This document shows, piece by piece, positions 42,672-60,442 of a stretch of DNA of 64,000 nucleotides. Every line of letters begins with the position of its first letter. Positions within the stretch are counted from its first letter, which is position 1. Below the pieces are notes generated by a model. The model saw only the letters and a program-made list of their open reading frames with translations. It did not search any database and had not been told where the DNA came from. The position numbers were made by a program, and so were the translations under genes. This stretch comes from an uncultured Alphaproteobacteria bacterium (GTDB lineage Bacteria; Pseudomonadota; Alphaproteobacteria; RF32; CAG-239): positions 73,286-137,285 of the forward strand of contig CALXPO010000025.1 in NCBI GenBank assembly GCA_944390315.1. Direction: 5' to 3'.

Positions 42672-44510
42672 ATGTCTATTCGTATTTTACCCGATACTTT
42701 AGTCAATCAAATTGCTGCCGGCGAAGTTATCGAACGACCGGCCTCGGTTGTTAAAGAATTGGTTGAAAATGCAATAGATGCAGGGGCTTCATCAATAGAT
42801 ATTTCCTTGATTGACGGCGGAAAGTCGTTGATAGCGGTTTCAGATGATGGAAAAGGAATGAATAAGGAAGATTTGGAGATGGCGGTTGAAAGACACGCTA
42901 CCTCCAAACTGCCGGATAATGATTTGTTCCATATCCATTTCTTAGGATTTCGCGGTGAGGCTTTGCCTTCAATTGCTTCGGTGGCCAAACTTAGTATTGT
43001 CTCGCGTTCAAAAGATGAGGAAAACGGTTGGAAAATCGAAGTTAACGGCGGCAAAAAATCAGAAGTTATTCCTGCGGCAACCAAACTCGGTACTCGAATT
43101 GAAGTCAGAGATTTGTTTTATGCAACACCGGCAAGACTGAAATTTTTAAAAACCGCATCGGGAGAAACAGCAGCTTGTGTCGATATTGTTAATCGCATAG
43201 CTCTTGCTAATCCTGAAATTTCCTTTTATCTCAGCGAGGACGGCAAAAAAAAGATAAATCTGAATGCTTGTCAAGGCGAATTGTTTGATGCGCGTCTTAA
43301 GAGATTGAGTGATGTCATGGGACGTGAATTCGGTGAAAATTCGGTGCTTATTAATGCTAAACGCGAACATACTCAAATCAGCGGTTATGTCAGCTTACCG
43401 ACACTAAACAAAGCAAATTCTTTATCTCAATATCTTTTTGTTAATAATCGTCCCGTTCGCGATAAACTTCTGCTTGGGGCCATTAAAGGGGCATACCAAG
43501 GAGTATTGGAAATCGGACGTTATCCGTTATGCGCTTTATTTATTGATGTCAATCCGGATTATGTAGATGTTAATGTTCATCCCACCAAAGCCGAAGTCAG
43601 ATTTTTTGACGGCAACGAGGTGAGGGGATTATTAGTCAGCTCCATTCGCAATGCATTAATGGTTGGCAGCAAGCAAACCGCGGCTCCGATAAATTTAGAG
43701 AATTTCTTAGAGGACAGCCTGCGAAAAACAGAAAATAATTTTATTAAATACAACACAGAAGAACAACAAGCTGAAGTATTAAAAGAACATCAGCAAGGAA
43801 TGAGTTTTTCAAATTATACACCGTTTTATTCGCCAAAATACTTTCCTAAGACTGCAACACTTCCCGATTTGGAACGAAAATTTTCGGTGAAAGCCGAAGA
43901 ACAAACAACAAATTATGTTGCCGAAAATGACGGTATCCTAGGACAGGCAAAAGCTCAGTTTCATAATACTTATATCATTTCCCAAACGGAAGACAGTATC
44001 ATCTTAATAGACCAACATGCTGCACACGAACGCATAGTTATGGAAAAAATGAAGAAAAATCTTAATGACGGCAGAAAACCAACTACTCAATTATTACTTC
44101 TTCCCGAAATTGTGGAGTTGGATTTATCGGAAAAGCAACATTTGCTTGAAAATGAACAAAATTTAGCGCAATTAGGACTGGTGGTGGAAGAATTTGGACC
44201 GGCAGCAGTTATTGTCAGAGAAATTCCGGCACTTATTGCCGATTGCGATATTCAAGCACTAATAAAAGATTTGGCGTCACAAATAGCCGAATGGGGAACC
44301 GACTTTGCCTTAAACGAAAAATTGAACCATATTTGTGCCACCATAGCCTGCCATGGCTCTGTTCGTGCCGGACGCAGCCTCAACTTGGCAGAAATGAATC
44401 ATTTGTTGCGAGAAATGGAACAAACTCCAAATTCGGGACAATGTAACCATGGTCGTCCGACATATATTGAATTGAAATTAAAAGATATTGATAAATTATT
44501 TCACAGATAA
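42672..44510 (+). CDS. mutL: DNA mismatch repair protein MutL
   Basis: IRILPDTLVNQIAAGEVIERPASVVKELVENAIDAGA (GHKL ATPase N-terminus). 612 aa. Confidence 0.9.
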   Translation: MSIRILPDTLVNQIAAGEVIERPASVVKELVENAIDAGASSIDISLIDGGKSLIAVSDDGKGMNKEDLEMAVERHATSKLPDNDLFHIHFLGFRGEALPSIASVAKLSIVSRSKDEENGWKIEVNGGKKSEVIPAATKLGTRIEVRDLFYATPARLKFLKTASGETAACVDIVNRIALANPEISFYLSEDGKKKINLNACQGELFDARLKRLSDVMGREFGENSVLINAKREHTQISGYVSLPTLNKANSLSQYLFVNNRPVRDKLLLGAIKGAYQGVLEIGRYPLCALFIDVNPDYVDVNVHPTKAEVRFFDGNEVRGLLVSSIRNALMVGSKQTAAPINLENFLEDSLRKTENNFIKYNTEEQQAEVLKEHQQGMSFSNYTPFYSPKYFPKTATLPDLERKFSVKAEEQTTNYVAENDGILGQAKAQFHNTYIISQTEDSIILIDQHAAHERIVMEKMKKNLNDGRKPTTQLLLLPEIVELDLSEKQHLLENEQNLAQLGLVVEEFGPAAVIVREIPALIADCDIQALIKDLASQIAEWGTDFALNEKLNHICATIACHGSVRAGRSLNLAEMNHLLREMEQTPNSGQCNHGRPTYIELKLKDIDKLFHR

Positions 44511-44660: not shown

Positions 44661-44690
44661 AAACTCGGAATGCAAATTCCGAGTTTTTTG
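44661..44690 (+). terminator. Rho-independent terminator after tRNA-His
   Basis: aaactcggaat-gcaa-attccgagttt followed by tttg. Confidence 0.6.
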
Positions 44691-44694
44691 TTAA

Positions 44695-44835
44695 TTGCCT
44701 TATAGAAAACCCCGAGTTCACTTAGAGCTGAATGCCAAGGTGTCAGAACAACACCTCTCAATGCCGTTGAACGTGGTCAAACCGCAAATCTTGTAGCTGA
44801 TTTTAAACCCACAGTTTCCTGAGAGATATTTATTG
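44695..44835. repeat. Intergenic repeat element (reference copy)
   Basis: ttgccttatagaaaaccccgagtt...ctgaatgccaaggtgtcagaacaacacc...gaacgtggtcaaaccgcaaatcttgtagctgattttaaaccca...gagagatatttattg. Confidence 0.7.
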
Positions 44836-44896
44836 ATTGTTTTTTTATTTTTTATAACTACAATATAAAAATAGATTTTTAATAAGAGAGGTAGTT

Positions 44897-45379
44897 ATGA
44901 CAGTCAGAAATATACTTCTTACGCTTGCCAAAAGAAAAAAATTTGATAAAGAACTCTTTATTGAAAAATTGGTAAAAATAAATGGCTTAAACGAAAAGCA
45001 ATGGAAAGACAATTGCTTTGCGCTGATAGAGCAAATCACGCGTATTCTGCGGGGAAGAAATATAGCCATAGGTCGTTACATTACCAAATACGAAAAAATG
45101 CTGAATGAGCAAAAAGATTTATGCGACAGCAATTTAAAATCATTTTATAAAAAAGAAATTAATCGATTGAAAAAAGAAAAACAAAAAGAAAATTTGTCTA
45201 TCAGCATAAAAGATGCTATCGACATGTTGTCCATGGAAGGATATCAGATAAAAAAAGAAGGAACGGCCCCCAGTAATGACATGATGCTAAATGTTCTGAA
45301 ATATCATTTTACAATGATGGATAACGATGCAAAAAAGAAATTTTTGCAAAAAATAAATGAATATTTTTTGCACGGCTGA
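44897..45379 (+). CDS. Hypothetical protein (orphan, lysine-rich)
   Basis: 160-aa ORF in an AT-rich islet between tRNA-His plus a repeat copy and recO. Confidence 0.4.
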   Translation: MTVRNILLTLAKRKKFDKELFIEKLVKINGLNEKQWKDNCFALIEQITRILRGRNIAIGRYITKYEKMLNEQKDLCDSNLKSFYKKEINRLKKEKQKENLSISIKDAIDMLSMEGYQIKKEGTAPSNDMMLNVLKYHFTMMDNDAKKKFLQKINEYFLHG

Positions 45380-45469
45380 TATCAAAATGATATAGATTTT
45401 AAGCTAAGATAAAAAACTCTTGTCGGGGTGAATAACAGCCTGCCTAGGCTTTAGGAATAATAATATAAA

Positions 45470-46186
45470 ATGCAATTTAGTGATGAAGGATATATAATTG
45501 ACACCAGACGTTACGGCGAGAATTCGCTTATTGTACATATTATAAGCAAAAACAATGGACTGATAAGCGGATTTGTAAAATCCGGCGGTAGCAAAAAGAA
45601 CATCTCGACTTGCCAAATCGGCAACAAAATAGCCTTTAATGCCTATGCCCGCATTGAAGAAAATATGTTAAATTTAAGAGTAGAATTAGTATCGCCGATT
45701 TCTGTCAGTTTTATGGTTTCCGCTCCCAAATTGGCAACCTTATCAGCTCTGTGTTCGCTTTGTATAGTCTGTTTGCCCGAAAAAGAAAATTTAGAAAGAT
45801 TTTACTATTATGTTGAGAGTTTTTTTGAGCTTATCAATGAAGATAACTGGCTGACACATTATTGCTTCTTTGAATTTCACCTGCTTGAACATCTTGGCAT
45901 TGGCTTAGATTTAAGCGAGTGCGCCGCTTGTGGAAGCAAAGAAAATTTGGCTTATGTATCTCCCAAAAGCGGACGAGCGGTATGTTTAGAATCGGGAAAA
46001 GAGTATGCCGACAGACTTTATCAATATCCTCACTTCATTGTGGATAAAAATTATTATCCGAATAACTCAGAAATGGCGGAATTGCTGAAGATGACCGGAT
46101 TTTTCCTCAATAAAAATTTTTTTAGAATACATGGCTTGAAATTCCCGCAAAACCGTGCTACTTTGCTGGAAAATCTAGGTTTATAA
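45470..46186 (+). CDS. recO: DNA repair protein RecO
   Basis: N-terminal OB-fold block ([34 protein letters not shown]) and a C-terminal Cys cluster ([14 protein letters not shown]). Confidence 0.75.
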
Positions 46187-46194
46187 GAGAAAAA

Positions 46195-48426
46195 ATGCAA
46201 GAAAATTCAGAAAAAATTAAAAATGTGCAGTTGGCGGAAGAACTGAGCAAACGCTATCTTTCTTATGCCATGTCTACTATCGTGTCACGCTCATTGCCTG
46301 ATGTTCGTGATGGTCTAAAACCGGTACACAGACGGTTGCTCTATGCTATGCGCCAACTTCATCTTGATCCAAAATCAGGATTTAAAAAATGCGCACGCGT
46401 CGTCGGTGATGTTATCGGTAAATATCACCCGCACGGCGATAGCGCCGTTTATGGTGCCATGGTGCGTTTGGCTCAAGATTTTTCAGTGCGTTATCCTTTG
46501 GTTGACGGGCAGGGCAACTTTGGCAATATAGATGGCGACGGAGCCGCCGCCATGCGCTATACCGAGGCAAGATTAACCGAATTTGCCATCGCAATGATGG
46601 AAGGCTTGAATGATAATGCCGTTGATTTTATGGAAACATATGACGGCGAAGAAAATGAGCCGGTTGTAATGCCGTCCATGGTCCCAAATTTGCTCTGTAA
46701 CGGTTCGGCCGGTATTGCCGTCGGTATGGCTACAAATATTCCGCCGCATAATCTGAGCGAAGTCAGCGATGCACTTTTGTATCTTATTGAAAATCCGGAT
46801 TGCGATATTGAGCCTTTAGTCAGAAGAATAAAAGGTCCCGATTTTCCGACCGGCGGTTTTATTGTTGATAAATTTGAAAGTATTTTAGATACTTATCGTC
46901 AAGGGAAGGGTGTCTTTCGTATTCGCGCCAAATGGGAAAAAGAAGATTTGGGACACGGGCAATATCAAATTGTGGTTACCGAAATTCCCTATATGGTGCA
47001 AAAAGCCAAATTGGTTGAGAAAATAGCATCACTGCTTTTAGATAAAAAAATACCTTTACTCAATGATATAAGAGATGAATCTTCCCACGATATCCGTATT
47101 GTCTTAGAACCTAAAAGCCGTTTGGTCGATGCCAACCTGTTAATGGAACATTTGTTCAAACAAACAGAATTGGAAAGCCGTTTTAATATGAATATGAACG
47201 TGCTGGATTCTGACGGTGTACCTCGGGTTATGTCCATCAAAGAAGTTTTAAGAGAATTCTTAAATCATCGTCATACCGTTTTGATAAGACGTTCAAATTA
47301 TCGATTGGAAAAAATTAATTACCGTCTGGAAATCTTAAACGGTTATTTGATTGCTTATCTCAACTTAGACAGAATTATTCAAATTATCCGGGAAGAAGAA
47401 GACCCCAAACAAGTGATGATGAAAGAATTTTCACTTACGGATAATCAGGCAGAAGCTATTTTGAATATGAAATTGCGTTCCTTGCGTAAATTGGAAGAAA
47501 GTCAAATCCGCGAAGAACATGATGAATTATCGGAAGAGAAAGCTCAGTTGGAAGATTTATTATCCAACGAAGATAAGCGTTGGGCGGCAATTGCGGCAGA
47601 AATCAAACAAATGAAAGAAAAATTCGGCAAAAAGACGGCTCTCGGTCGTCGTCGTACCGAATTTGCCGAGGCTCCCGCAGAAATCGAAGTCCCGCTTGAG
47701 GCGTTGATTGAAAAAGAACCTATAACAATTATATTGTCGCAAAAAGGCTGGATAAGAAGCCTAAAAGGGCATGTTAATTTGAACGACGATTTTAAGTTCA
47801 AAGATGACGATGCTTTGCAAATTGCTTTACATGCACAAACAACTGACAAATTGGTTATTATGGACAGTTCGGGTAAGTTTTTCAATATTTCAGCCAATGA
47901 AATACCGAGCGGAAGAGGATTTGGACAACCGCTGCGTTTAATGGTGGATATAGCCAACAATGATGATGTTGTTACAATGTTTGTCTTTGAACCGAAGGCA
48001 TCATATTTGGTTGCATCAAAACGCGGTTACGGCTTTATTGTAGATGAAAATCATATTATTGCCCAAACACGCAACGGACGCAAGATTATGAATGTGGCTG
48101 ACGGGGATAGGGCAATGATGTGTGTCAAAGTCAGCGGAGATATGGTTGCAATTGTCGGTGATAACCGTAAATTGTTAGTATTCAAAACCGAAGAGATTCC
48201 GACTTTGGCACGCGGACGCGGTGTCGGTTTGCAAAAATATAAAGACGCGACTTTGTCAGATATTCAATTTTTCAATGAAAATGAAGGATTTAGCTTCAGT
48301 CGTTCGGGAGGAATCAGCACCGAAAAAGATTTGTTGACTTGGTTAGGGCATCGAGCTCAGGTCGGAAAGCAAGTTCCTTTCGGTTTTCCGAAGAATAATA
48401 AATTTTTCAATCAAAACAATGAATAA
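46195..48426 (+). CDS. parC: DNA topoisomerase IV subunit A
   Basis: [19 protein letters not shown]...[20 protein letters not shown] (catalytic Tyr region). 743 aa with no GyrA-box, which favours ParC over GyrA. Confidence 0.85.
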
Positions 48427-48481
48427 AAGTTTCTGATTGTATCAAAATAGGGGAAATGCTTAAGTATTTCCTCTTTTTTTA

Positions 48482-48575
48482 TAGTTGCCTTAGCATTTAA
48501 CGCCGGCAATCACGGTCAAAACGCATGGTTTTTAGCTGATTTAGAACCCACAGTTGACTGGGAATGTCTACCGGC
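48482..48575. repeat. Intergenic repeat element, partial (3' module only)
   Basis: tagttgcctta...cacggtcaaaacgcatggtttttagctgatttagaacccacagtt... Confidence 0.55.
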
Positions 48576-49277
48576 AGCCCGACAAGAAAATTGAGATTTT
48601 TTGTTTTCGTCCTTATTATAGTGCAATTTACAAAACTTATTCATAATAAAAATACGAATAAGTTTTGGGTAGGGAATTGGAAGCATCATGCTTGTGGTCA
48701 AAAATTTCGGACAATCTTTATTACTATAGACGACAAGGAGAAATATAATGGAATTTCTCAATCAAATTTTGCAGAGCCGGCAAAAAATCATAATAATAAT
48801 CAACAGATTATGCTAACAATTTAACAGACGAGGCGGTGAGTTTTGTCTGTCTTATACACTATATATATTTGTCGTATAATCTATATTATGTATAGTTTGA
48901 TATTCGGAGATAATAAATTGAAATTAAAATATATTATTCAAATTTCTAACGCCAATTTCACTTATTTTTAACAACAAATTCAAAAAATATGCTCATATTA
49001 TCAAAATCTCGACCTCTATCTCATCTGCGCACCACAAATCTGCACCTGTCGAACACATTTCATAACTTTTTAATAACACAACATATTCAATAAATAACTT
49101 GTCGATAACTTCAATCTCATCGCAATATCTTACACCTTTGCAATTCGGCTTGAGATAAATTGTCTTATAAAACATTTTTATTAAGTTGAAATGCAATATA
49201 TCCACTTGAATAATTTGATTATTAAAATGAATTCAAATTATCCTCGACACAGTCTTAAATCTTTCTGTAAATTGCCG

Positions 49278-50864
49278 TTAAACTGCCGCGGCAATCAATG
49301 TTTGGGTATATTTTTGTTGCGGACGTTCAAAAATCTGTTCACAGTCGCCAAACTCGACCTTTTTTCCGTCTTTTAAAACCAAAATGCAATCAGACATGGC
49401 CCGAATGGCATTCATATCATGTGAGATAAAAATATAGCTGAGGTTTCTTCTTTGTTGAATTTCTTGCAATAATTTGATTATTTGGGCTTGAATGGTGACA
49501 TCCAAAGCCGATGTCGGTTCATCTAAAATCAGTAATTTAGGTTCCAAAATCAAAGCTCGGGCAATGGCTATTCTTTGCCTCTGTCCACCGGAAAATTCGT
49601 GTGGATATTTTTGCAAATCGTCTTCTTTCAGACCGGTTTCTTCAATTGTTTTCAAAACCTTGGTATAACGTTCCGCTGAGCTTAAATGCGGATAATGGAT
49701 TTTTAATCCTTCACTGACAATCTCTTCAATATTCATGCGAGGATTCAATGAATTATAGGGATCTTGAAAAACAATCTGAATATCTTTACAAAGACTTTTT
49801 CGTTGCTTGTTCGAGAGTTCCGATAAGTTTTGATTTTCAAAAAATATCTTGCCGTTATATGGAATTAATCCGATTATGGACGAACCTAATGTTGTCTTTC
49901 CCGAACCTGATTCTCCGACTATACCTATTGTTTCGCCTTGATTGAGTTTGAATGAAACATTATTTACGGCTTTTAATTCTTCGGTTACCCTTCCCCATAA
50001 ATTCTTTTTGAGCGGAAAAGTGACATTAACGTTTTTTAACTCAAGCAACATTTTTCCAAAATTATGCTTATTTTTTCTTAGCATATGGGCATTAATTAAT
50101 TCTTTGGTATAAGGATGCCGTGGGGTTTCAAAAACCTGTTGCAGGCTTCCCTGCTCTACGATTTTTCCCTGTTTCATAACTAAAACATCATCTGCAACTT
50201 TACGAATAACATTTAGGTCATGACTAATAAAAATAATAGACATATCCAATTTTTTCTTTATATCTATCAACAACTTAATTATCTGTTCTTGAACTGTTAC
50301 ATCAAGTGCCGTCGTCGGTTCGTCCGCAATCAAAATATCCGGTTGGTTGGCAATGGCCATTGCAATCATAACTCTTTGTCTTTGTCCGCCGGAAAGTTCA
50401 AATGGATAAGATTTCATGCGTTTTGCCGCATTTTGAATTCCGGTCATCTTTAATAATTTTAATGTTTCTTCTCTGGCTGCTGCTTCGCTGAAACCGCGGT
50501 GAAGCTGCAAAACTTCCATAACTTGCTTTTCAATGGTATGAAGAGGATTTAGAGAAGACATAGGTTCTTGAAAAATATAAGAAATCTTATTTCCTCGAAT
50601 GTGCCTGAATTGCTCATCCGATATTTTGGTTAAATCCTGTCCCGCAAATATAATCGAACTTTTTTCCCCTAAAACAGCTTTAGGATATGGTAATAGCCCC
50701 AACAAAGACATGGCCGTTACCGATTTTCCCGAACCGGATTCCCCGACTATGCCAAGAACTTTTCCTTTTTCAAGAGAAAACGAAAGATTATCAGCGGCAA
50801 GATTTGTACTGCCGTCATCATTTCTGAAAGCGATAGATAAATTCTTGACTGTTAACAAACTCAT
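49278..50864 (-). CDS. ABC transporter ATP-binding protein with two fused ATPase domains (YejF/OppDF-like)
   Basis: Two Walker A motifs (GESGSGKS twice), two LSGGQRQR signatures, and C-terminal oligopeptide-type extensions. Confidence 0.85.
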   Translation of the reverse strand: MSLLTVKNLSIAFRNDDGSTNLAADNLSFSLEKGKVLGIVGESGSGKSVTAMSLLGLLPYPKAVLGEKSSIIFAGQDLTKISDEQFRHIRGNKISYIFQEPMSSLNPLHTIEKQVMEVLQLHRGFSEAAAREETLKLLKMTGIQNAAKRMKSYPFELSGGQRQRVMIAMAIANQPDILIADEPTTALDVTVQEQIIKLLIDIKKKLDMSIIFISHDLNVIRKVADDVLVMKQGKIVEQGSLQQVFETPRHPYTKELINAHMLRKNKHNFGKMLLELKNVNVTFPLKKNLWGRVTEELKAVNNVSFKLNQGETIGIVGESGSGKTTLGSSIIGLIPYNGKIFFENQNLSELSNKQRKSLCKDIQIVFQDPYNSLNPRMNIEEIVSEGLKIHYPHLSSAERYTKVLKTIEETGLKEDDLQKYPHEFSGGQRQRIAIARALILEPKLLILDEPTSALDVTIQAQIIKLLQEIQQRRNLSYIFISHDMNAIRAMSDCILVLKDGKKVEFGDCEQIFERPQQKYTQTLIAAAV

Positions 50865-51919
50865 CTCTTATTCTTTCTTGTATCAAATGCGTCACGAACG
50901 CCCTCGCCTATAAATATAAGCAATGTCAATAGTGTTGATAAAACAATAAATATTGAAATACCAATCCAGGGAGCTTGTAAATTGTCTTTGCCCTGACGTA
51001 CCAAATCTCCTAACGACGGATATTCGTGTGATAGTCCTAAACCTAAAAAATCAAGTGCCGTAAGCGAAACTATTGCCTCTGACAACAAAAAAGGAATAAA
51101 AGTTATTGTTGACACCAAAGCATTAGGTAAAATATGACGCCATATAATTTGCCAATTGCTGACACCCATGACGCGTGCAGCTTTGACAAATTCAAAATTA
51201 CGCGTACGCATAAATTCTGCCCGCACCATTCCCGTAAGCGATGTCCATGAAAAAAACAACAAAATGACCAACAAACTCCAAAAGGTTGGTAAAAATATAC
51301 TTGATACGATAATTAAAATAAACAATTGAGGCAAAGATTCCCATATCTCAATAAATCTTTGCATAATGATATCCAACTTTCCGCCGAAATACCCTTGAAC
51401 GGCTCCTGCCAAAATTCCGATAACCGAAGAAACAAATGTTAGAATAAATGCAAAAACAATCGACAAGCGCAATCCATACAAAAGTCTGGCAACAATATCC
51501 CTGCCCTCGTCATCCGTTCCCAGCCAATGTCGAGCCGAAGGAGCAGCCGGCGTCGGCGCATCCATTTCCATATCCACAGTGTTAAAAGAAAAAGGTATTA
51601 TCGGCATTATCAACCAACCATGCTGTGCTATATTATTGCGAATATAAGGATCCGTATAGTCTGCGGGTGTCGGAAAATCACCTCCAAAATCGGCATCTGT
51701 ATATTCTTTTAGCAAAGGAAAGAAAAAATCTCCTTTATAATTTACCAGCAAAGGCTTATCGTTTGCCAAGACTTCTGCAAACAAACTCAATATGAAAGTG
51801 ATAATCAATAAATACAAAGCCCAAACAGCCCGTTTGTTACGGCAAAACCTGTAATACATTCGGGTAATATTGGTTTTCTTTTGTTTATCCGGTATATTAT
51901 TGAGCAACGGCAGCACCAT
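50861..51919 (-). CDS. ABC transporter permease, OppC/YejE-like
   Basis: Long N-terminal periplasmic loop, six TM helices, and an EAA-like loop (…AARVMGVSNWQIIWRHILPN…). Its stop overlaps the ATPase start by 4 nt. Confidence 0.8.
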   Translation of the reverse strand: MVLPLLNNIPDKQKKTNITRMYYRFCRNKRAVWALYLLIITFILSLFAEVLANDKPLLVNYKGDFFFPLLKEYTDADFGGDFPTPADYTDPYIRNNIAQHGWLIMPIIPFSFNTVDMEMDAPTPAAPSARHWLGTDDEGRDIVARLLYGLRLSIVFAFILTFVSSVIGILAGAVQGYFGGKLDIIMQRFIEIWESLPQLFILIIVSSIFLPTFWSLLVILLFFSWTSLTGMVRAEFMRTRNFEFVKAARVMGVSNWQIIWRHILPNALVSTITFIPFLLSEAIVSLTALDFLGLGLSHEYPSLGDLVRQGKDNLQAPWIGISIFIVLSTLLTLLIFIGEGVRDAFDTRKNKR

Positions 51920-53939
51920 TTACCTGTGACAGAGGAATAACTTCAGCTTCGCTTCCAACTTGAATTTCGTTGGTCATAATTTTTTGCTCGCTGATGTTTG
52001 TATTTTCAAGCGGCAACAATCCTGATGCAGACGGCAATTCCGCCGTTTCAACCAAATCCGCTTTTCCCAAAGGAACTAAAAGTGATTTTTCGGGTGCTCT
52101 GTAATTCAGTTTATGCCACTCTTTGTACCAACGATTAAATTCCTGCAACGATTTTTGCGCAATGGTATTTGTAAAAGCAACGCTTGCCAAACTTTCTGTT
52201 ACGGATTTTTTGATGCTTTTAGAGAGTTTTGTGTGAGCAAATTCTTCACATTTTGGTCCGTTGTTTAATTGATTATTCAGAATATCTTCAACTGCGCATA
52301 TAGACTTGTTTATAACAAATTTTTTGCTACCTGCCGTTTTGACCGCCAAAGCTGTTAATTGTCCGTTTATAAAGCGTTCTGCATAATCATCGTTGTTGGA
52401 ACCAATCATATCGTCCATACCTGCCAAACCTTCGATAATAACACTGATATTTTGAGAATTCGGCAATTGACCAAGACGTTCCATCATTTTTTCTAATTGT
52501 CCGAATAAGCACATTGTTTGTTTCATATAGGCGTTTCTTTTTTCTAAGAAAGACTTATTTTCTACCCACGGTTGATTATATTTCACCAACCATTCATCCA
52601 TGCCTTTCAAACGGCACATGTCATCATAGACATACATATCCGAAGGCAAATCCAGATATATAAAATAGGCTTGGTTTCCTTTATCTTTTTCTATATCATC
52701 GAGCATTAAGTCTAAGGCCTTATAAGAATTGATGACATAAAGTTTTTTGTAAGTTGTCCCTAAAATCGGCGTTTTGGCCGGATTATAAAACGTTTTGGCA
52801 GATCCGTATAGATTTTCCATAATATCTTCATTATTAAACCAACCGGTACTTTCAAGCCATTGTATGGCCAAAATCTTAATTTTATCTCCCGTTGAGAATT
52901 GAAGTGAATCAATATTCACAGGAAAATTAACTTTTGTCACGCAACGATTGACGGCATCTTGGTTATTCTTTTTGCATAAGTTAATTCCGTGAGATTGATA
53001 AGCACTTATTTTGTAGCCTTTTTCTTTCAGACCATCGTATACAATATTATCTTTGAGGTAGGCCTCAAAATCTTCTCGATTTTTAAATTGCCAATATCCG
53101 TTTTTCAACACTTGATTTTGTAAAAAAGATATATCCTCACCTGCGGTGTAATTAAGATTGCGAGCCGCATTAATAAACTGATTTGTGCTTGTGATATAAG
53201 CATTCGGATAAAGTTTGAAACCGTTTTTAGCATAAAAAGCCAACATAATTTTCATGAGTTGTTCTTTATAGATTTCCGAAGCATCTTTTTTATCCAACGT
53301 TGCCAGATAGCTATATGAAGGAGCATTTGCAATCATAACCGTAATCAGTTTTTGGGAATCATCACCGACAGGAGCCGAAACCATATCCGGATTAATAACG
53401 AACTCACTACGATCTTGGTTTTGATTAACCAGAACGGCACCAAAGCAAAAGACAACCGTCAGCACTAACAGAGCTTTGATACGCTTGGGTGTAAGAGCCA
53501 AAATTGCAAAGACAATCACTCCGGCCACAACAGCGCTGAATACTTCGGTACTTTCTATATTAAAGTTGGCAAATTGACAAATAAAAGCATAAGTAACAAA
53601 ACCTGTAACAAGTGCGGTTAAAATGTATAGTATAATACTTAAAAAGGAAAGGCAGAAATACAAAAGGGTAATTGTAAGAGCCATACCTATCAAGAAATAA
53701 AGCACTTCGGGACGCAGATGGCTTGTTCCGCTAAAAATATTGAATGGACCCGAGGAAGCAAATAAAATAAAATCCATACCAAGCAATGATATGGTTATCA
53801 AACAACAAGAAAAGAAGTTAAACAAATAATTCCATGTTGATGAATTAAACAAGTTTTTTTTGCTTTTTCTGGGGGCCGGTCTAAAGCCAAGATTGGGTTG
53901 AATATCTTCGGGACGACCATCGATGACTACATCTTCCAT
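51897..53939 (-). CDS. Large polytopic membrane protein of unknown function with a big extracytoplasmic domain
   Basis: The track ORF runs to 54149 but would overlap rpsD by 83 nt. The first in-frame Met clear of rpsD is MEDVVIDG at 53939, which gives about 680 aa. Four to five N-terminal TM helices precede a soluble domain of about 480 aa. The 3' end overlaps the permease start. Confidence 0.5.
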   Translation of the reverse strand: MEDVVIDGRPEDIQPNLGFRPAPRKSKKNLFNSSTWNYLFNFFSCCLITISLLGMDFILFASSGPFNIFSGTSHLRPEVLYFLIGMALTITLLYFCLSFLSIILYILTALVTGFVTYAFICQFANFNIESTEVFSAVVAGVIVFAILALTPKRIKALLVLTVVFCFGAVLVNQNQDRSEFVINPDMVSAPVGDDSQKLITVMIANAPSYSYLATLDKKDASEIYKEQLMKIMLAFYAKNGFKLYPNAYITSTNQFINAARNLNYTAGEDISFLQNQVLKNGYWQFKNREDFEAYLKDNIVYDGLKEKGYKISAYQSHGINLCKKNNQDAVNRCVTKVNFPVNIDSLQFSTGDKIKILAIQWLESTGWFNNEDIMENLYGSAKTFYNPAKTPILGTTYKKLYVINSYKALDLMLDDIEKDKGNQAYFIYLDLPSDMYVYDDMCRLKGMDEWLVKYNQPWVENKSFLEKRNAYMKQTMCLFGQLEKMMERLGQLPNSQNISVIIEGLAGMDDMIGSNNDDYAERFINGQLTALAVKTAGSKKFVINKSICAVEDILNNQLNNGPKCEEFAHTKLSKSIKKSVTESLASVAFTNTIAQKSLQEFNRWYKEWHKLNYRAPEKSLLVPLGKADLVETAELPSASGLLPLENTNISEQKIMTNEIQVGSEAEVIPLSQVNGAAVAQ

Positions 53940-54013
53940 AATTTTGTTCCATAATTGTGTGGTTGAATAAAAAATATAGGTTATATAAGCATATTTATAA
54001 TAATTTTTAAAGC

Positions 54014-54050
54014 AAAAATCCCCAAGATTACACAATCTTGGGGATTTTTG
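54014..54050. terminator. Rho-independent terminator of rpsD (bidirectional shape)
   Basis: aaaaatccccaagatt-acaca-atcttggggattttt is a perfect 16-bp stem immediately 3' of rpsD. Confidence 0.7.
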
Positions 54051-54066
54051 TTGTTTTTCTTTATGA

Positions 54067-54678
54067 TTATCTGGAGTAGAACTCGATAACCAAGCTGGGT
54101 TCCATAACGGAAGCATAAGGAACATCGTCAAACTTAGGTACAAAAGCATATTTTACGCTAAATTTAGAATCAGCTTCCAGATAAGAAGGAACTTCATGCA
54201 AATTAGATTCCAAAGCAGCTAAGACCATAGGCATTTGCTGAGCTTTATCTTTAACGGAGATAACATCACCGGCTTTAACCATATAGGACGGGATATTAAC
54301 TCTTTTACCATTTACCAAGATATGACCATGGTTTACGAATTGACGAGCTGCGAAAATTGTCGGAACAAATTTTGCTTTGTAGACCAAGTTGTCCAAACGA
54401 GATTCCAAAATACCAATCAAGTTTTCGGCAGCATCACCACGTCTTCTGGTGGCTTCAGCATAATATTTACGGAATTGTTTTTCAGAAACGTTACCGTAAT
54501 ATGTTTTTAATCTTTGTTTAGCTTGTAATTGTTCACCATAGTCGGTTAATTTCTTTTTACGAGCACCGTGTTGACCCGGACCATATTCGCGTTTAAGCAG
54601 AGGGCTTTTCGGGTCTCCCCACAAATTGGCATGCAAACTACGGTTTGTCTTTTTCTTAGCTTTTACAATACTTTTCAT
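54067..54678 (-). CDS. rpsD: 30S ribosomal protein S4
   Basis: [30 protein letters not shown]...NLVYKAKF...[19 protein letters not shown]. 203 aa. Confidence 0.9.
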
Positions 54679-54857
54679 TCAAGTTTTCCTTTTTGATTTA
54701 TTTTAACGTTATTGTCCCGGTAGTCTTTATATTGAATATAAAGCGGGGTATAATTACCCACATTTCCAGAAGTGTCTGAAATCTAATCTAATTTGAAAAA
54801 AAAATCAAGCATTTTCTTGTTGAAAAATACGAATTATTTTAATTATGCCTTAACCCT

Positions 54858-55610
54858 TTATCGGGACAATTGTTTCAATTGTTGTGCTTTGTCTTTTGGC
54901 AAGACTATACCGCATGACACAACAAATTTTAATCCATCTTCAACAGACATATCAAGCATTATAACATCTTCTTTGGGCACAAAAATCAAAAATCCCGAAG
55001 TAGGATTGGGAGTGGTCGGAATAAATATATTGAGCATATCTTGATTGATTTTGCTTTTAACTTCTCCTTCGGTATTGCCGCTTACAAAGCCCAAAATCCA
55101 AATTCCCTTGCGTGGATATTCCAACAGAACAACTTGTCGGAAGGATTGATTCTTGTTAGAAAACAGCGTTTCAAAAACCTGCTTCAGTAAAGAATATATA
55201 CTTGAAATAACCGGCATTCTTTTGACAATCCAGTCGCCTAAACGTACAAAAAAACTCCCGACAAAACCAGCCGCAAACATTCCGATGAGTATCAACGCTA
55301 CAAGAAGCAATAAAACACCAAGCCCCGGAATGGTAAACGGAATATTATTATAATATTCTTTAATTTGCGGCGGCAACAGCTTTTCTACTCCGTTATCTAT
55401 CCACATAATAATCTGATATGCCATATAAAATGTAATGGATACCGGAGCCGTTACGAGTATTCCCGTAAAAAAATATGCTCTTACCTTCGCTCCGAGTTGC
55501 ATAAAAACTCGTTGCTCTTTTTCTCGTATCTTTTTGATGTGCTCTGCTCTTCTTTTGGTCTTTTCCTGATTTTTGATAAATGACATGTTACCCTTCTTTC
55601 GCATCTTCAA
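54858..55610 (-). CDS. DUF502-family membrane protein
   Basis: Two TM helices, then the conserved ...NPTSGFLIFVP... block. The start is uncertain between 55610 and 55586; the later start clears the recJ stop. Confidence 0.55.
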   Translation of the reverse strand: MKMRKKGNMSFIKNQEKTKRRAEHIKKIREKEQRVFMQLGAKVRAYFFTGILVTAPVSITFYMAYQIIMWIDNGVEKLLPPQIKEYYNNIPFTIPGLGVLLLLVALILIGMFAAGFVGSFFVRLGDWIVKRMPVISSIYSLLKQVFETLFSNKNQSFRQVVLLEYPRKGIWILGFVSGNTEGEVKSKINQDMLNIFIPTTPNPTSGFLIFVPKEDVIMLDMSVEDGLKFVVSCGIVLPKDKAQQLKQLSR

Positions 55611-57354
55611 TAATAAATTGTATTTGTGTCTTTCCCATCCAACTGTCTTTTCTTATTGTTCCGACAACATTAAGAGACGTGCCGCGGTTGTTTAACAAAG
55701 CCTTTCCCAATTCAGTATCAGCCGACCTAAAAGCCATGGCTTTTAAACTTCCCCCTTCAAGAGTCGTTAAAATACAGCGTACGTGTCCACTTCCTACAAC
55801 GGCAGGTTTAATAATTTTGACAGACGGAATCATAAATTTCGGTTCGGGATTTGCAGAACCAAACGGCTCTAACAAACTGAGCTTGTCGCTTAATTCGATA
55901 GAAATGGCCTTTAATGAAATAATGCCGTCTATTTCTATAACCGGATTGATTTTTTCTTTGCCAAGGAATTTTTCGGCATATTCTCCGGCAAATTTTCGAA
56001 ATTCTTCAAGTTTTTCTTTTTGAAGAGAAAAACCCGCAGCCATATGATGCCCCCCTCCTTTAGTCAATATTCCTTTTTCCTTCGCAGCCATAATCAATGC
56101 TCCGATATTTAACCCTGCGACTGAGCGCGCCGAACCTTTTACCTCATCTTCTTCTATCGACATAACAAATGCCGGCAAATTATAGCGCTCTTTTAGTTTT
56201 CCCGCCACAATTCCTATCACGCCTTGATGCCAATCGTTGCCATATACATAAGCAATCGGATATGACTGTGGCGTGCCTTCTAAAATTTCAATGGCTCGCA
56301 AAAGAACATATGCTTCTATTTCTTTGCGTTGCGCATTAAAATTATCTAATTTTTCTGCTAAAAGAGCAGCGGTCGTCTCATCTGCGGCACACAACAAGCG
56401 GCTTCCCGTAGATGCTTCTCCTACTCTACCTCCGGCATTAATACGCGGACCTAATATATAACCCAAGTGATACGCTGTCGGTGCTGAGGATAAAGATGCT
56501 TTATCTGTCAATGCCGTAATACCTTTGTTTTGCCTTAATGACATAATCTTTAATCCCTGGCGCACATAGGCTCGATTTAACCCTAACAAAGGAACAACAT
56601 CACATACGGTCCCTAATGCCACTAAATCCAACCATGACAATAGTTTGGGTTCCGGTCTGTGATTGTAATATCCTCGCTTTCTCAATTCACGGTTAACACA
56701 AACAATGGTCATAAAAACAACACCGACGGCGGCCATGTATTTGAGATAAGGATAATTATCATCTTCATCTAACCTTTTGGGATTGATAACCGCGTAAACC
56801 TTAGGTAAAATAGTTTCCGCTTCATGGTGGTCAATGACGACAACATCCAAACCTTGGTTTTGAGCATATTCCAGTGCATCAAACGCAGTTGTTCCGCAAT
56901 CGGCGGTAATAAGCAATTTGGCATCATGAGTTAAAAAATCATCAACCATTTGCCGATTGGGACCGTAGCCTTCTTCTCGTTCCGGAATATGCAGCAAAAT
57001 ATTGCAATCAAGAGATTGAAAAAATAATTTTAATAAGGAAGATGACGTGGCACCATCGACATCATAATCACCGATAACGGCAATCTGTTCTTTTTTTTCA
57101 ATGGCATCGGCAATTCTTGACGCGCCTTTTTCCATATCCTTTAGGCATGCGGGATCCGGCATCAAATTCTGAATTTTGGGATACAAAAAATTATCTACCT
57201 CATTTATGTCTATTCCTCTGGAAACAAGAATAGCTGCGATATTTATCGGCAAATTATATTTGGCGGCTATCCTTTCTGCTTCGTTTTCATTATAAGAAAC
57301 AAATTTCCATATATTGCCGCCGATAGATAAGTCTTGTTCTAATGCCGTATTCAA
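55588..57354 (-). CDS. recJ: Single-stranded-DNA-specific exonuclease RecJ
   Basis: DHH motifs (VIGDYDVDGATSS; VVIDHH) and a DHHA1 region. 588 aa. Confidence 0.9.
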   Translation of the reverse strand: MNTALEQDLSIGGNIWKFVSYNENEAERIAAKYNLPINIAAILVSRGIDINEVDNFLYPKIQNLMPDPACLKDMEKGASRIADAIEKKEQIAVIGDYDVDGATSSSLLKLFFQSLDCNILLHIPEREEGYGPNRQMVDDFLTHDAKLLITADCGTTAFDALEYAQNQGLDVVVIDHHEAETILPKVYAVINPKRLDEDDNYPYLKYMAAVGVVFMTIVCVNRELRKRGYYNHRPEPKLLSWLDLVALGTVCDVVPLLGLNRAYVRQGLKIMSLRQNKGITALTDKASLSSAPTAYHLGYILGPRINAGGRVGEASTGSRLLCAADETTAALLAEKLDNFNAQRKEIEAYVLLRAIEILEGTPQSYPIAYVYGNDWHQGVIGIVAGKLKERYNLPAFVMSIEEDEVKGSARSVAGLNIGALIMAAKEKGILTKGGGHHMAAGFSLQKEKLEEFRKFAGEYAEKFLGKEKINPVIEIDGIISLKAISIELSDKLSLLEPFGSANPEPKFMIPSVKIIKPAVVGSGHVRCILTTLEGGSLKAMAFRSADTELGKALLNNRGTSLNVVGTIRKDSWMGKTQIQFIIEDAKEG

Positions 57355-57519
57355 TGTCTACTCCATATTTATAATTCTAATAGCATCATTTGTAAAACAT
57401 ACCTTAAGATTAAACAAGTACAAAAATACTAAAAAAATACACTTTTAAAAAATCAGTTTGTATTTTATAAAATATTGTTATAGAATTTTAACGTAGCTTT
57501 GAAAATTATGGAGGGAGAT

Positions 57520-58038
57520 ATGTCAAAAATAGTAAAACTTTTTATGATTCTTTTATTACTGACTGCTTGCTATAAAAAAGATAACAGTGAAACTTTAGTT
57601 ATTACGGATAGTGACGGTAATGAAATTGTCTATAAAATAGAATTGGCACAAACTAAAGATGAGTTAACGACCGGTATGATGAACCGTACCGAACTTGATG
57701 CCGATGCCGGCATGCTCTTTGACTTATCTCCGTATACAAATGTTCCCACGGCAATGTGGATGAAAGATACACCTTTAGCCTTAGATATGCTGTTTATTGA
57801 CCAGGACGGAACGGTTTATTGGATATATGAAAATGCAGAACCAAATTCCGAAAAATTGATTGTTGCCCCCTATGCTGCCAATGCCGTCTTAGAAATCAAT
57901 GCCGGTGACGTTAAAGCAAAAGATATCAAAATCGGTGATACCGTAAAGTACAAATTGTTTGACAAAGATAAACCGGTTCAAAATACTGATGAAAGTAAGA
58001 CGCAAAATCAAAATTCGGATAATGCTGATAAAAAATAA
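57520..58038 (+). CDS. DUF192-domain lipoprotein
   Basis: RBS ggagggag before the ATG at 57520. Lipobox LLLLTAC. DUF192-like core (LDMLFIDQDGTVYWI). Confidence 0.55.
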   Translation: MSKIVKLFMILLLLTACYKKDNSETLVITDSDGNEIVYKIELAQTKDELTTGMMNRTELDADAGMLFDLSPYTNVPTAMWMKDTPLALDMLFIDQDGTVYWIYENAEPNSEKLIVAPYAANAVLEINAGDVKAKDIKIGDTVKYKLFDKDKPVQNTDESKTQNQNSDNADKK

Positions 58039-58083
58039 AATAATTTATCGTAATCATTACCAAAGGCGGAAATTTATTCCGCC

Positions 58084-58352
58084 TTTTTTGATTAGTGCCT
58101 TACAGAAAACCCCGAGTTTACTCGGGGCTGAATGCCAAGGTGCTGGAACAACACCGCTCCATGCCAACGAGCGTGGTCAAACCGTAAGGTTTGTAGCTGT
58201 TATAGAACCCCGGGTTTACTCGGGGATATCTACGTGTCACCTTGCGGAATACTTTAATTTTACTCGACAGGCATTTTATGCCGACAAGCATGGTTCAAAC
58301 GTAAGATTTTTAGCCTATTTGAAACCACCCGTGTACTGAAAGATATTTATAA
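58084..58352. repeat. Intergenic repeat element, two tandem units
   Basis: Unit 1: tagtgccttacagaaaaccccgagtttactcggggctgaatgccaaggtgctggaacaacacc...gagcgtggtcaaaccgtaaggtttgtagctgttatagaa. Unit 2: ccccgggtttactcgggg...atggttcaaacgtaagatttttagcctatttgaaacca...gaaagatatttat. Each unit contains an 8-bp hairpin ccccgagt-ttac-actcgggg. Confidence 0.7.
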
Positions 58353-58382: not shown

Positions 58383-58796
58383 TTATTTATGGGCAAAGGT
58401 AAAATAGCGGTGCAGCAGATAAGTTAAAATTGTAATTCCTATGGTATAAAATCCTTGTGCAAGCAATTCATTTATTTTATATATATCAACCATGATAAAC
58501 ATTGCAAAATAGTTTAAGACCATCGTTGTTAAATAAACTCCCCACCCTTTACTATATTCTTTATACCAAATTCCGTTTGAGCGAAAAACATAGTAACGCA
58601 TTGTAAAAATAGACACGTTGACAGAAATAACATAGCCAATCCAAATGGCATTTTTATACGACAATTGTAACACAATTAGTAAGAAAGCAAAAACGCCATA
58701 GCCAAAAACGGTATTAAACCCGCCAACTAATAAAAATCTGAGCTTTTCAGGCAAAATAAACCAAATTTTTTCAATTTTCAGATACAAGTTTATCAT
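58383..58796 (-). CDS. GtrA-family small membrane protein (candidate polyprenyl-phosphate-sugar flippase)
   Basis: 137 aa with four TM helices. LRFLLVGGFNTVFGYGVFAFL is a GtrA-like N-terminus. Confidence 0.65.
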   Translation of the reverse strand: MINLYLKIEKIWFILPEKLRFLLVGGFNTVFGYGVFAFLLIVLQLSYKNAIWIGYVISVNVSIFTMRYYVFRSNGIWYKEYSKGWGVYLTTMVLNYFAMFIMVDIYKINELLAQGFYTIGITILTYLLHRYFTFAHK

Positions 58797-60429
58797 TTTC
58801 AGGCTCTATGTAGTAGATTTTGTACACTTTATTTTCAAATATCAGTTGGTAATCCGATTTTGGTTCAAAATCCGGAGAATTGATTTTATGTACGACAAAA
58901 TAATTACCGGCTTGGGGGCTTTTTTGAATGACTTTATAAGAATATTCATCCTCATCAACATGAAGATTTTTCAATGGGACTTCCGCTATCACCGAAATAT
59001 CGAGATTAGGAAAATTATATTTTAAGGCAGAAGCCCAACCGGTAACTTTCCACCATTTTCTCGGGGTGGGCTCATTAGAATACAGATATACGCTTACGGG
59101 ATTTTTTTGGGCTCGTGAAGCAATATATTCAGCAATTTGTCTTCTGTATATACCCTCTTCCCGATGATAAACGTGGTAATTGACGTACCCCGAATACAAA
59201 ACCGTCGGTATAAATAAAATAGCTAAAATCATCTTGTTTTGAACAAATGTAAAAATATAGGCTACGGCAAAAACAACCGTCAGATAGAGGTAATATGATT
59301 TATAATAATCCGGAATTACCACTATTTTCAAAACAAAGACAACCACCAGGCTCAAAATCGTTATTCCTAGCAAAGTTCCTTCTGTCAAAAAATATATCTT
59401 ATCGTATCGGCGTTGAAATATTTTGAACAACAATATCATCAAAGCACATGCATTTAATATTAACGCGAGCTTATTTATGCTTACGATTATCGACACATCG
59501 GCTCTATGGGTATCTAAATAAGGCGTCCCCAGAGTATTGTCCTGAAGGAGTAAGAAACAATTCATGAAAATGAATAAGCTCCAAAATAACAAATATTCAA
59601 TCGGCATTTTTGAAATTGTTTTGAAAGGAGAAAAAAACGAAGAAATATTTATCTGTCCCGAAAAAATGCGATATATGATAAAAAATCCCAACAATCCGGC
59701 ATAAAATAAAGTTACCGTTTCTTTCATATAAATAGCGATGTTGGCACAAATCAAAAACCATAACAAATTTCCAAATCGCCCTGTTTGATTAAATTTATTA
59801 AGTGAAATCAAGCTCAATATGACAAAAATCATGATAAGCTGTTCCGAAAAAATAGGATTATTAATGACAAACACCGCCGGTATAAAGTTAACTATTGCAA
59901 GAACAATCAAACGTCTTGTTATCGGTATAAACTCAAAAAATCGGTATAACAAATACAGCAAAAACAGTTGCTTCAAAATAATCCAACAATAGATAATTAT
60001 AAAATTATGGCTAACGGCATAAATGAAATTATTATCCATTCCGGCAAGCGGCGTAAAACGAATCGGATCAATAATGGATAATATACCGTATTTCATTGCG
60101 ACTTGAACATCAACCGCCATTAAATCAAAATTATTGAGTGTCGATGCTTCTTGAGATAAAGTGGCAAAACAGTATAGTCCTATAGATAGAAGTAACAAAC
60201 CAAAAGAAAACCATTTGGCTGCAGGGGCAGATGAAAAATCATATTTTTCTTCAGGTAAAAAAGAAACTTTTTCATATTTAAAAAAGAATTTGACTAATAA
60301 CCAGTTAAGAAAAAGAATTACTGAAACGACTAATGCATAATTTCCAAGATTGTTCCACGTCAGAAAAAACTCAAAATGATTATATATTGCAGATATAATA
60401 TCATCGTTAAATAACGGAAAGTTTCTCAT
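58771..60429 (-). CDS. Polytopic membrane glycosyltransferase-like protein, paralog A (candidate GT-C / ArnT-PMT-GtrC-like)
   Basis: 552 aa with about 11-13 TM helices and a C-terminal soluble domain of about 110 aa. Paralogous to the adjacent 529-aa protein (shared blocks IRFTPLAGMDNNFIYAVSHNFII versus MRFNPIAGIDHNIVYGISHNYIA). I cannot confirm the family from motifs alone. Confidence 0.5.
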   Translation of the reverse strand: MRNFPLFNDDIISAIYNHFEFFLTWNNLGNYALVVSVILFLNWLLVKFFFKYEKVSFLPEEKYDFSSAPAAKWFSFGLLLLSIGLYCFATLSQEASTLNNFDLMAVDVQVAMKYGILSIIDPIRFTPLAGMDNNFIYAVSHNFIIIYCWIILKQLFLLYLLYRFFEFIPITRRLIVLAIVNFIPAVFVINNPIFSEQLIMIFVILSLISLNKFNQTGRFGNLLWFLICANIAIYMKETVTLFYAGLLGFFIIYRIFSGQINISSFFSPFKTISKMPIEYLLFWSLFIFMNCFLLLQDNTLGTPYLDTHRADVSIIVSINKLALILNACALMILLFKIFQRRYDKIYFLTEGTLLGITILSLVVVFVLKIVVIPDYYKSYYLYLTVVFAVAYIFTFVQNKMILAILFIPTVLYSGYVNYHVYHREEGIYRRQIAEYIASRAQKNPVSVYLYSNEPTPRKWWKVTGWASALKYNFPNLDISVIAEVPLKNLHVDEDEYSYKVIQKSPQAGNYFVVHKINSPDFEPKSDYQLIFENKVYKIYYIEPENDKLVSEN

Positions 60430-60442
60430 GTCCAGCTCTCTT

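Follow-up and report, generated by a model that had tools for sequence, protein, structure and literature searches.

A gene-less ~145-bp repeat family placed after intrinsic terminators in uncultured gut Alphaproteobacteria: a candidate IS200/IS605-type mobile element

The transposase of IS608 binds subterminal hairpins on one DNA strand and cleaves 3' of TTAC, 19 nt 5' of the left hairpin, and at TCAA, at most 10 nt 3' of the right hairpin (PMC3201880; PMC5934647). The four bases 5' of each hairpin serve as guides, with the pairs C-3:G1 and T-4:A2 and an unpaired A-2 (PMC3201880; PMC5934647). An IS605-type element with the target TTTAT has been documented together with gene-less derivatives, the PATEs (PMC10055086). 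Here we analysed a family of gene-less repeats of about 145 bp in a 64-kb stretch of DNA (contig CALXPO010000025.1, referred to as the window) from a metagenome-assembled alphaproteobacterium. That the family is a non-autonomous mobile element of some kind appears highly likely. The full proposal, a non-autonomous element of ~145 bp moved by an IS200/IS605-type mechanism, is given a rough probability of 0.55; the transposase type and the single-strand mechanism are the parts that we infer. The family probably belongs to the PATE class of IS200/IS605 derivatives.

The hosts are a clade of uncultured gut Alphaproteobacteria, with 37% GC in the window organism and about 50% GC in its relatives. 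The window encodes a permuted tmRNA of the alpha type, its sequence is also present in ENA assemblies, and its MutL shares 78% identity with the MutL of the gut metagenome-assembled genome "Azospirillum sp. 51_20". ENA samples with this lineage are ERZ24773426, ERZ28614561 and ERZ16268111. The family seems to be undescribed, no literature search having been aimed at it.

A multi-copy family with insertion polymorphism

The repeats form a real, multi-copy family that is polymorphic for insertion, occurs in several genomes and in one phage contig, and is linked to terminators in a fixed orientation. The window contains eight units at five loci and one fragment (nhmmer E 1e-15 to 1e-44); the units described below are U1-U7. 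A sequence-only reading had placed repeats at 58084-58352 and at four other loci. All of them were recovered by nhmmer with a profile built from the first-listed copies (E 9e-22 to 7e-42 in the window), and the same profile found nothing else there above noise except the short fragment. A degenerate 29-nt core pattern matched the window four times, compared with 0.00 matches expected from 100 shuffles. Every window copy is located between real genes, in agreement with the intergenic placement described before; the open reading frame (ORF) 57959-58339, which spans the tandem pair at 58 kb, is spurious.

Copies outside the window were searched for with one open frame of the unit, which was translated and compared with 5.8 billion predicted proteins from ENA, NCBI and Logan assemblies. 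This yielded 68 short spurious ORFs, most of which contain a near-invariant element part (...LLVALQKTPSLLGAECQGVGTTPLHANERGQTVRFVAVIEPPVYWGISI); the leader is part of 61 of these ORFs, which have 56 different upstream contexts. The other five frames added 20 matches, among them a DUF262 gene interrupted by the element and no transposase-like protein. In contigs that were reached through the spurious ORFs, near-identical young copies were present at unrelated loci (twice in L086 and once in L093; L numbers denote contigs and records other than the window), again after terminators. A variant of the element was found in contigs of 47-51% GC, and diverged copies in contigs of 48-54% GC with housekeeping genes. 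Diverged copies are also carried by seven human-faecal GenBank records of 48-54% GC that are named "UNVERIFIED: Bacteriophage sp." (L103-L109: MT839539, MT838190, MT835680, MT835812, MT836093, MT837319 and MT835966). The two of these records that were scanned encode SHMT, LpxA, LpxI, LpxB, TrkH, MurJ and DnaB; these two, at least, are fragments of bacterial chromosomes (~50% GC) and not phages. The idea of a MITE/REP-like mobile family instead of chance similarity is borne out by the 56 contexts of the 68 ORFs, the new loci and the other organisms. The sequence-only reading had named a lack of further copies in a genome-wide search as grounds for rejecting the family; many more copies do exist.

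The presence or absence of the element was compared between relatives, as the sequence-only reading had proposed, and sister taxa without the element were found, one of them with an empty site. At 92%, 87% and 78% MutL identity, no copy was observed in 2.7-22 kb around the same genes. In L032 (87% MutL identity) the order of mutL, tRNA-His and an orphan ORF is kept and U4 is absent. The empty site reads ...CTTTTGTTTAT/TCAGACTTGTTTT... (the slash marks the junction), compared with a 142-bp unit followed by TGATTGTTTT in the window. Two more arrays, of two units and of 2.6 units, are located just past the window end in other samples of the same species, and one array is short by exactly one 136-bp unit in one sample. 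The identities to the consensus are 100, 96, 96, 90, 84, 82, 76, 74 and 72%. Most copies are nearer to the consensus than to one another, with a few near-ties, which gives a star-like age series.

A 46-nt form with leader, one hairpin and tail, called a solo, was found after a terminator in one IMG/VR phage contig with structural genes, and a second solo is present in MT835680. Four scans of phage collections with left-end, body and right-end patterns gave only one solo and one chance match in a coding sequence, and the PLSDB plasmids gave no real match. A comparison with related phages for an empty site is suggestive only, the upstream genes being different and the comparison not strictly orthologous.

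Target site and ends of the unit

Twelve independent 5' junctions were read at the DNA level. Ten of them are at most 10 nt away from a stem-loop with a T-run, that is, an intrinsic terminator, and in 12/12 the leader is on the side of the T-run, so that the element is co-oriented with the upstream gene. The insertion point is 3' of TTTAT or a close variant, and half of the junctions (6/12) read exactly TTTTTAT/T. In the window as a whole, a run of five or more T precedes just 7% of the TTAT sites; with this background, our binomial estimate for six such junctions in 12 by chance is a probability of ~1e-4. Nearly all copies have T(T/G)AT as their left flank, and the empty site of L032 also contains TTTAT. 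In arrays, the next unit abuts the tail of the previous one, as ...ATATCTAT or ...C followed by AGTT..., or as ...TTTAT/TAGTT.... The proximity to tRNA genes that had been pointed out before holds at only two loci; the stronger regularity, which had been overlooked, is the co-oriented T-run of an upstream terminator. Nor did the suggested role as terminators find support: the elements come after existing terminators and do not supply them.

A consensus was derived from 12 aligned units of the window species, and three nearly undiverged copies from other loci agree with it. It reads, after the T-run and AT, TAGTTGCCTTACAGAAAA, CCCCGAG-TTTA-CTCGGGG, CTGAATGCCAAGGTGTTGGAACAACACCGCTCCACGCCAACGAGCGTGGTCAAACCGTAAGGTTTGTAGCTGTTATAGAA, CCCCCAG-TTTA-CTGGGGG and ATATCTAT. 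The unit of ~145 bp, which has no gene, is thus composed of an 18-nt leader, a 7-bp G+C hairpin, a body of ~88 nt holding three smaller hairpins, a second hairpin and an 8-nt tail ending CTAT. Hairpin 2 is a near-identical direct copy of hairpin 1 with the same loop polarity (GTTTAC). Since both are palindromic, the 5' arm of hairpin 1 can also pair with the 3' arm of hairpin 2. Terminal inverted repeats were not found in the unit, the tips TAGTTGCCTTACAG... and ...GATATCTAT not being inverted copies of each other, and the outer ends are asymmetric, with 18 nt on the left and 8 nt on the right that are unrelated in sequence. Diverged members keep the 18-nt spacing, the GAAAA before hairpin 1 and the T(T/G)AT flank, with the remaining leader variable. 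A subfamily B (L097, L104 and the window locus at 48.5 kb) has a different left hairpin. One young copy contains a 25-nt internal tandem duplication (L093 10060-10110, CCAAGGTGTTGGAACAACACCGCTC twice), and similar small duplications of the body are visible in several spurious ORFs (NERGQ repeated), from which slippage seems to be frequent in the element.

The ends were compared with the guide and cleavage sequences of IS608. In subfamily A, one expects TTAT from the left guide AAAA, and this is the sequence conserved in the left flank; from the right guide AGAA (AGCA in one diverged copy) one expects CTAT. The pairing of guide position 4 with position -1 was deduced by us from the published IS608 guide and cleavage sequences. 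The right boundary was set independently from 50 right flanks in ORF context. Conservation stops exactly at CTAT in these 50 flanks (...ATATCTAT, then T or G) and also in L097, L103 and L104. In L104, ACAG replaces ATAG further 5', at the position facing the unpaired A; this single case favours an IS608-type rule over a plain extended helix. The asymmetric ends, the direct hairpins, the fixed left motif and the strict orientation argue against a DDE-type MITE and fit the ends of IS200/IS605 elements. As in PATEs, subterminal hairpins of like sequence and like orientation are present at both ends without terminal inverted repeats.

In the mechanism that we propose, the element would be mobilised in trans by a Y1 (HUH) transposase of the IS200/IS605 type, encoded elsewhere, that acts on single-stranded DNA ("peel and paste"). 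The transposase would bind to both hairpins, and the bases just 5' of them would be guides: AAAA, before the left hairpin, would pair with the cleavage tetranucleotide TTAT of the left flank, and AGAA, before the right hairpin, with the cleavage tetranucleotide CTAT at the right tip. New copies would enter one way round, 3' of TTTAT or a close variant, typically formed by the end of a terminator T-run and AT, and would decay neutrally once inserted. Recombination between the two hairpins would lead to the 46-nt solos, and unequal exchange would alter the number of units in an array. The association with terminators may arise because the T-run with AT is itself a TTTAT site, at which insertions would do little harm. 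Likewise, tandem arrays may form because the end of a unit, a hairpin with a T-rich tail ending TAT, would offer a similar site.

Several observations weigh against an IS200/IS605-type mechanism. The left hairpin of subfamily B is preceded by ATTT and the flank is still TTAT, a combination that is not foreseen by the simple guide rule. In the consensus, both stems are perfect helices of 7 bp and only the 4-nt loop is asymmetric, whereas the hairpins of IS608 are imperfect palindromes, in which a bulge or mismatch serves to tell the strands apart. No Y1 transposase (PF01797) or TnpB was present among the called genes of ~125 kb of the species and of the other loci, and in none of its frames does the element contain the end of a long protein, the matches being short or fused spurious ORFs. 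A parent element had been sought through proteins ending in the six frames of the unit; all candidates were such spurious ORFs and were rejected. Scans of reference genomes and JGI metagenome DNA with GGTYMAANCGNNNNNNTTNTAGCYKATTT gave chance matches only, a result that says little, as the pattern (..TAGCTGATTT) was taken from older window copies and misses the family consensus (..TAGCTGTTAT). The GC skew shows no clear strand bias of the copies relative to replication; locally its sign is mixed, and a sister species has part of the window in the opposite orientation. The arrangement TTAT...CTAT is compatible with a target duplication of 4-5 bp, and the flanks of the empty site in L032 are diverged. 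Finally, the best-conserved part of the unit is the body (GCTGAAT; GGTCAAACCG.AAGGTTTG.AGCTG) and not the terminal hairpins, which a pure transposase-substrate model does not explain.

By another route, the repeats would be moved by a DDE transposase that duplicates TTAT/TTTAT, or by a TTTAT site-specific recombination of the kind proposed for Bacillus cereus bcr1. The size, the lack of coding capacity and the copy number fit a miniature element, T-rich tetranucleotides are present on both sides (TTAT...CTAT), TTTAT occurs in the empty site, and a TTTAT motif has also been linked to the bcr elements, which measure 100-400 bp (PMC6542083). However, terminal inverted repeats are missing, with the outer 18 nt and 8 nt unrelated, and the orientation relative to the T-run is strict (12/12). 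Whether TTAT, TGAT or GTAT stands on the left, the right tip remains CTAT or CTAC, unlike a duplication. In this small sample the two ends did not covary, and the site-varying target duplication of a classical MITE was not seen. Such a route is regarded as improbable.

The solos bear on a REP/BIME-like origin, in which the 18-bp hairpin would be the basic unit, the 145-bp form a mosaic, and a domesticated RAYT (TnpA-REP) the spreading enzyme. Solo hairpins are indeed found in the phage contig and in MT835680, the copies are intergenic, 3' of genes and in tandem arrays, and REPs are described as resembling IS200/IS605 ends and as being acted on by related Y1 enzymes (PMC3333891). Both solos, however, join a left leader to a right tail, as predicted for a deletion between the hairpins, and what is commonly found is an asymmetric unit of 145 bp, whose tips are distinct and whose body is strongly conserved. 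The hairpins are direct and not alternating, no RAYT gene was seen, and the stem foot carries neither GTAG nor CGTC, the two tags by which most REPs are defined (PMC3733652). The family thus lacks the features of a REP/BIME element, which are a palindromic unit of 20-40 nt, a GTAG/CGTC tag and a commonly alternating orientation, and we consider this origin unlikely.

The conserved body was also considered as a functional structured RNA, i.e. a small RNA (sRNA), a 3'-UTR (untranslated region) module or a guide-RNA scaffold, that would be kept by the host in many copies and spread by duplication and gene conversion; its place behind terminators would then be a matter of function. The unit is predicted to fold stably (z -3.6 to -4.4), the helices persist, with some compensatory changes, in genomes that range from 37% to 54% GC, conservation is higher in the body than at the tips, and when the opposite strand is read, TTTTCT comes after hairpin 1 in a terminator-like manner. 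Among 15 diverse members, 83% of the cells of the proposed helices are paired, compared with ~40% for slid partners, and 19 double-change cells were counted versus 11.1 in shuffles (3 of 500 shuffles reached the observed number). The compensatory changes are mainly in the central hairpin and in hairpin 2, and by the caveat of the tool this signal is suggestive only. With nine copies of the window species the covariation was no better than in shuffles. Rfam 15 gave nothing at gathering score in the window, and a permissive search led to chance-level matches only (E <=10 on two copies, <=0.01 on the L027 and L097 arrays), so that no Rfam match supports such an RNA even at an E of 10. A promoter is conserved on neither strand, and little transcription is expected at a position behind a terminator. 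The individual copies decay with 27 G.T and 23 A.C mismatches in the stems, as expected for the neutral decay of inserted copies and with no signal for either strand. Moreover, presence or absence at the same locus differs between close relatives, and dozens of near-identical copies are found in unrelated contexts, one of them inside a gene. An sRNA read from the opposite strand (hairpin 1, then TTTTCT) was rejected, its promoter not being conserved and the stems showing no strand asymmetry. The sRNA genes suggested by the sequence-only reading therefore found no support, and a structured RNA kept by the host is judged quite unlikely.

A guide-RNA scaffold has been reported for some PATEs. Since the conserved body leaves room for a sequence-specific role, the body of ~90 nt and the right end might form an omega-RNA-like guide scaffold that is made by read-through from the co-oriented upstream gene. 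The 3' end of this RNA would be the right flank, and the RNA would direct a nuclease of the TnpB/IscB type, with its gene elsewhere, to cut the empty TTTAT site that matches. A gene-less element would in this way secure its own retention, with the leaky terminator setting the dose of the RNA. We regard this reading as improbable.

Copies and neighbouring genes

The best-preserved copy in the window is U6 (58093-58233, + strand), which is 96% identical to the consensus (profile match 58092-58233, E 2e-40). On the + strand it consists of the 18-nt leader TAGTGCCTTACAGAAAA, hairpin 1 at 58110-58127 (CCCCGAG-TTTA-CTCGGGG), a body with the hairpins GGTG..CACC, CCATGC..GCGTGG and CAAACC-GTAA-GGTTTG, hairpin 2 at 58208-58225 (CCCCGGG-TTTA-CTCGGGG) and the tail ATATCTAC. 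U7 (58234-58350, + strand; ~72% to consensus; profile match 58201-58352, E 1e-31) follows head-to-tail. It has lost ~25 nt internally, including the GGTG..CACC hairpin, and its 3' end is ATATTTAT. Upstream of the pair, the intrinsic terminator of the DUF192 gene (58062-58089, + strand) has a 10-bp stem and TTTTTT, and U6 starts 3 nt past its T-run (TTTTTTGAT/TAGTGCC). The two tandem units had been recognised correctly at this place; their boundaries had to be redrawn as given here, and the internal deletion of the second was added. The hairpin that the pair appeared to share is explained by the same hairpin sitting near both ends of a unit. On the other side, the tandem pair adjoins an AT-rich gtr-like cluster for surface-glycan modification (58383-62848; 32% GC at 60-64 kb) with a GtrA-like gene, two adjacent, large paralogous membrane proteins of ~530-550 aa without a Pfam match and a family-2 glycosyltransferase gene.

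U4 (44692-44833, + strand) is a single full-length copy with 82% identity to the consensus (profile match 44691-44837, E 7e-42). It is flanked by the terminator of tRNA-His on one side and an orphan ORF on the other, and begins 2 nt beyond the T-run of this intrinsic terminator (44661-44689, + strand, 3' of tRNA-His). The orphan ORF of 160 aa (44897-45379) has no Pfam match; it is not a cargo of the element, because the relative of 87% MutL identity has this ORF and lacks the element there. A second orphan ORF that adjoins elements and has no Pfam match encodes 57 aa (L027 5179-5352, past the window end) and is flanked by two arrays of the same orientation.

Two units are on the - strand. U1 (13992-14128; 84% to consensus; profile match 14129-13988, E 1e-37) is placed after the terminator of the gene at 14159-14512, with the T-run at 14132-14140. 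The strongly degenerate U2 (13873-13991) is joined to it head-to-tail at the junction ...GATATTTAT/TAGTTGCC....

The remaining copies are on the + strand. U3 (26180-26310; 76% to consensus; profile match 26179-26311, E 2e-31) has an 11-nt internal deletion. It lies 3' of an acyltransferase/AMP-binding gene and 140 nt from tRNA-Arg, with TTTTT just before it. U5 (48482-48571; profile match 48479-48574, E 9e-22) belongs to subfamily B, has the leader TAGTTGCCTTAGCATT as in L097 and L104, and starts 2 nt beyond the T-run of the parC terminator. This copy had been described as a 3' half only, which is too simple: the 5' leader of subfamily B (AGTTGCCTTAGCATT...) is kept, as in L097 and L104, and ~50 nt are deleted internally. 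The isolated 5' fragment of 47 nt at 21143-21189, with AGTTGCCTTACGAAAAA and a decayed hairpin, is the only locus without an adjoining T-run.

The block 44840-58084, from the orphan ORF to the DUF192 gene and including recO, parC, opp genes, rpsD, DUF502 and recJ, is inverted relative to the sister with 92% MutL identity. In L021, tRNA-His is followed by an autotransporter gene, DUF192 (-), recJ (+), DUF502 (+) and rpsD (+). Both breakpoints of the inversion (window versus L021/L022) are at element sites, and in the window the GC skew and the gene orientation switch at ~48.5 kb. Simple recombination between copies does not explain the inversion, because the copies are direct and the sister is without the element. 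The rearrangement hotspots that had been suggested were accordingly not confirmed, despite the position of the breakpoints.

A 41-nt stretch with 76% identity to the 3' end of mutL (44464-44504) recurs at 48910-48950. In L094, from the same species, the sequence is 99.7% identical up to 48899 and then continues, at this 48.9-kb repeat, with a prophage-like block (Hydrolase_2, Collar); the 41-nt repeat may be the remnant of an attachment site. The element itself was rejected as a prophage attachment site: the prophage-like block that follows parC in one strain diverges ~325 nt beyond the element. The phage with the solo is unrelated to this block.

About 1.7-5 kb past the right end of the window, L027 (975-4339) encodes DUF2779, with a faint Cas4-like match, and an AAA_15/AAA_21/AAA_23 ATPase. 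This pair beside two element arrays could be a defence module. The ~200 nt between the pair and the first array contain a promoter-like TTGACC and, at the end, a terminator, and no ORF or Rfam match was found in this stretch. In L086, in the interval from a Fic gene to lemA, a young copy has upstream of it a short ORF with its own terminator (10001-10075). The product of this ORF is a hydrophobic peptide (MLGVLFSNSCSFAILIKKTLDDSV...), and the ORF is fused to the element by gene callers. Elsewhere in the window, two adjacent genes of the Ppx/GppA family (31923-33918) are apparently tandem paralogues and have a 46-nt segment of 83% identity in common (32376-32421 and 33379-33424).

Significance and comparison with known systems

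The element is of an ordinary selfish kind. Noteworthy are its close coupling to intrinsic terminators, its head-to-tail arrays, and its occurrence in gut Alphaproteobacteria that differ widely in base composition and in one phage contig. The consensus, the boundaries and the target provide a signature for a high-copy family in common uncultured Alphaproteobacteria of the human gut. Copies of the family lie behind dozens of spurious "hypothetical proteins" of public catalogues and behind likely assembly breaks or the collapse of arrays at element sites, and they are markers of strain-level variation. If the IS200/IS605 mechanism is correct, single-strand transposon ends would choose TTTAT at the tails of intrinsic terminators, the terminator tail would be a safe harbour that keeps insertions out of genes, and an undiscovered partner transposase, possibly with an RNA-guided nuclease, would be present in these genomes.

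The class C group II introns of bacteria insert immediately 3' of intrinsic terminators. They share with the repeat family the orientation-specific insertion directly 3' of terminator stem-loops, whereas the repeat unit is only 145 bp long and has no intron domains, Rfam match or reverse transcriptase.

The closest systems after the PATEs are the REP/BIME elements and the bcr1-type repeats. REP/BIME elements with their RAYTs are also G+C-rich intergenic hairpins 3' of genes in mosaic or tandem arrangements, and their enzymes are relatives of the IS200/IS605 TnpA. In contrast, the repeat unit described here has 145 bp, distinct ends, a long conserved linker, direct hairpins and no GTAG/CGTC tag, and its solos look like deletion products. 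The bcr1 repeats of the Bacillus cereus group are likewise ~150 bp long, are present in tens to more than 100 copies, have a stable predicted fold and a mobility linked to TTTAT (PMC6542083). Host and sequence are unrelated, and the mechanism of bcr elements is itself unsettled.

From PATEs, such as those of Geobacillus stearothermophilus ISGst and Haloquadratum walsbyi, the repeat family differs in that no cognate tnpA/tnpB was found and in that the stems are perfect and not imperfect. Further differences are the subfamily with another left hairpin and the same target, the very strong link to terminators, the frequent head-to-tail arrays and a body that is the best-conserved part. Like PATEs, the family is short, non-coding and multi-copy, without terminal inverted repeats and with subterminal hairpins that are similar in sequence and orientation at both ends. 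The spacings of 18 nt and 8 nt are close to the 19 nt and 10 nt of IS608. In subfamily A, the bases before the hairpins match the end tetranucleotides by the IS608 pairing rule. Insertion is one-way and apparently 3' of a fixed motif of 4-5 nt, which is TTTAT/TTAT here and the same in ISGst2 (PMC10055086).

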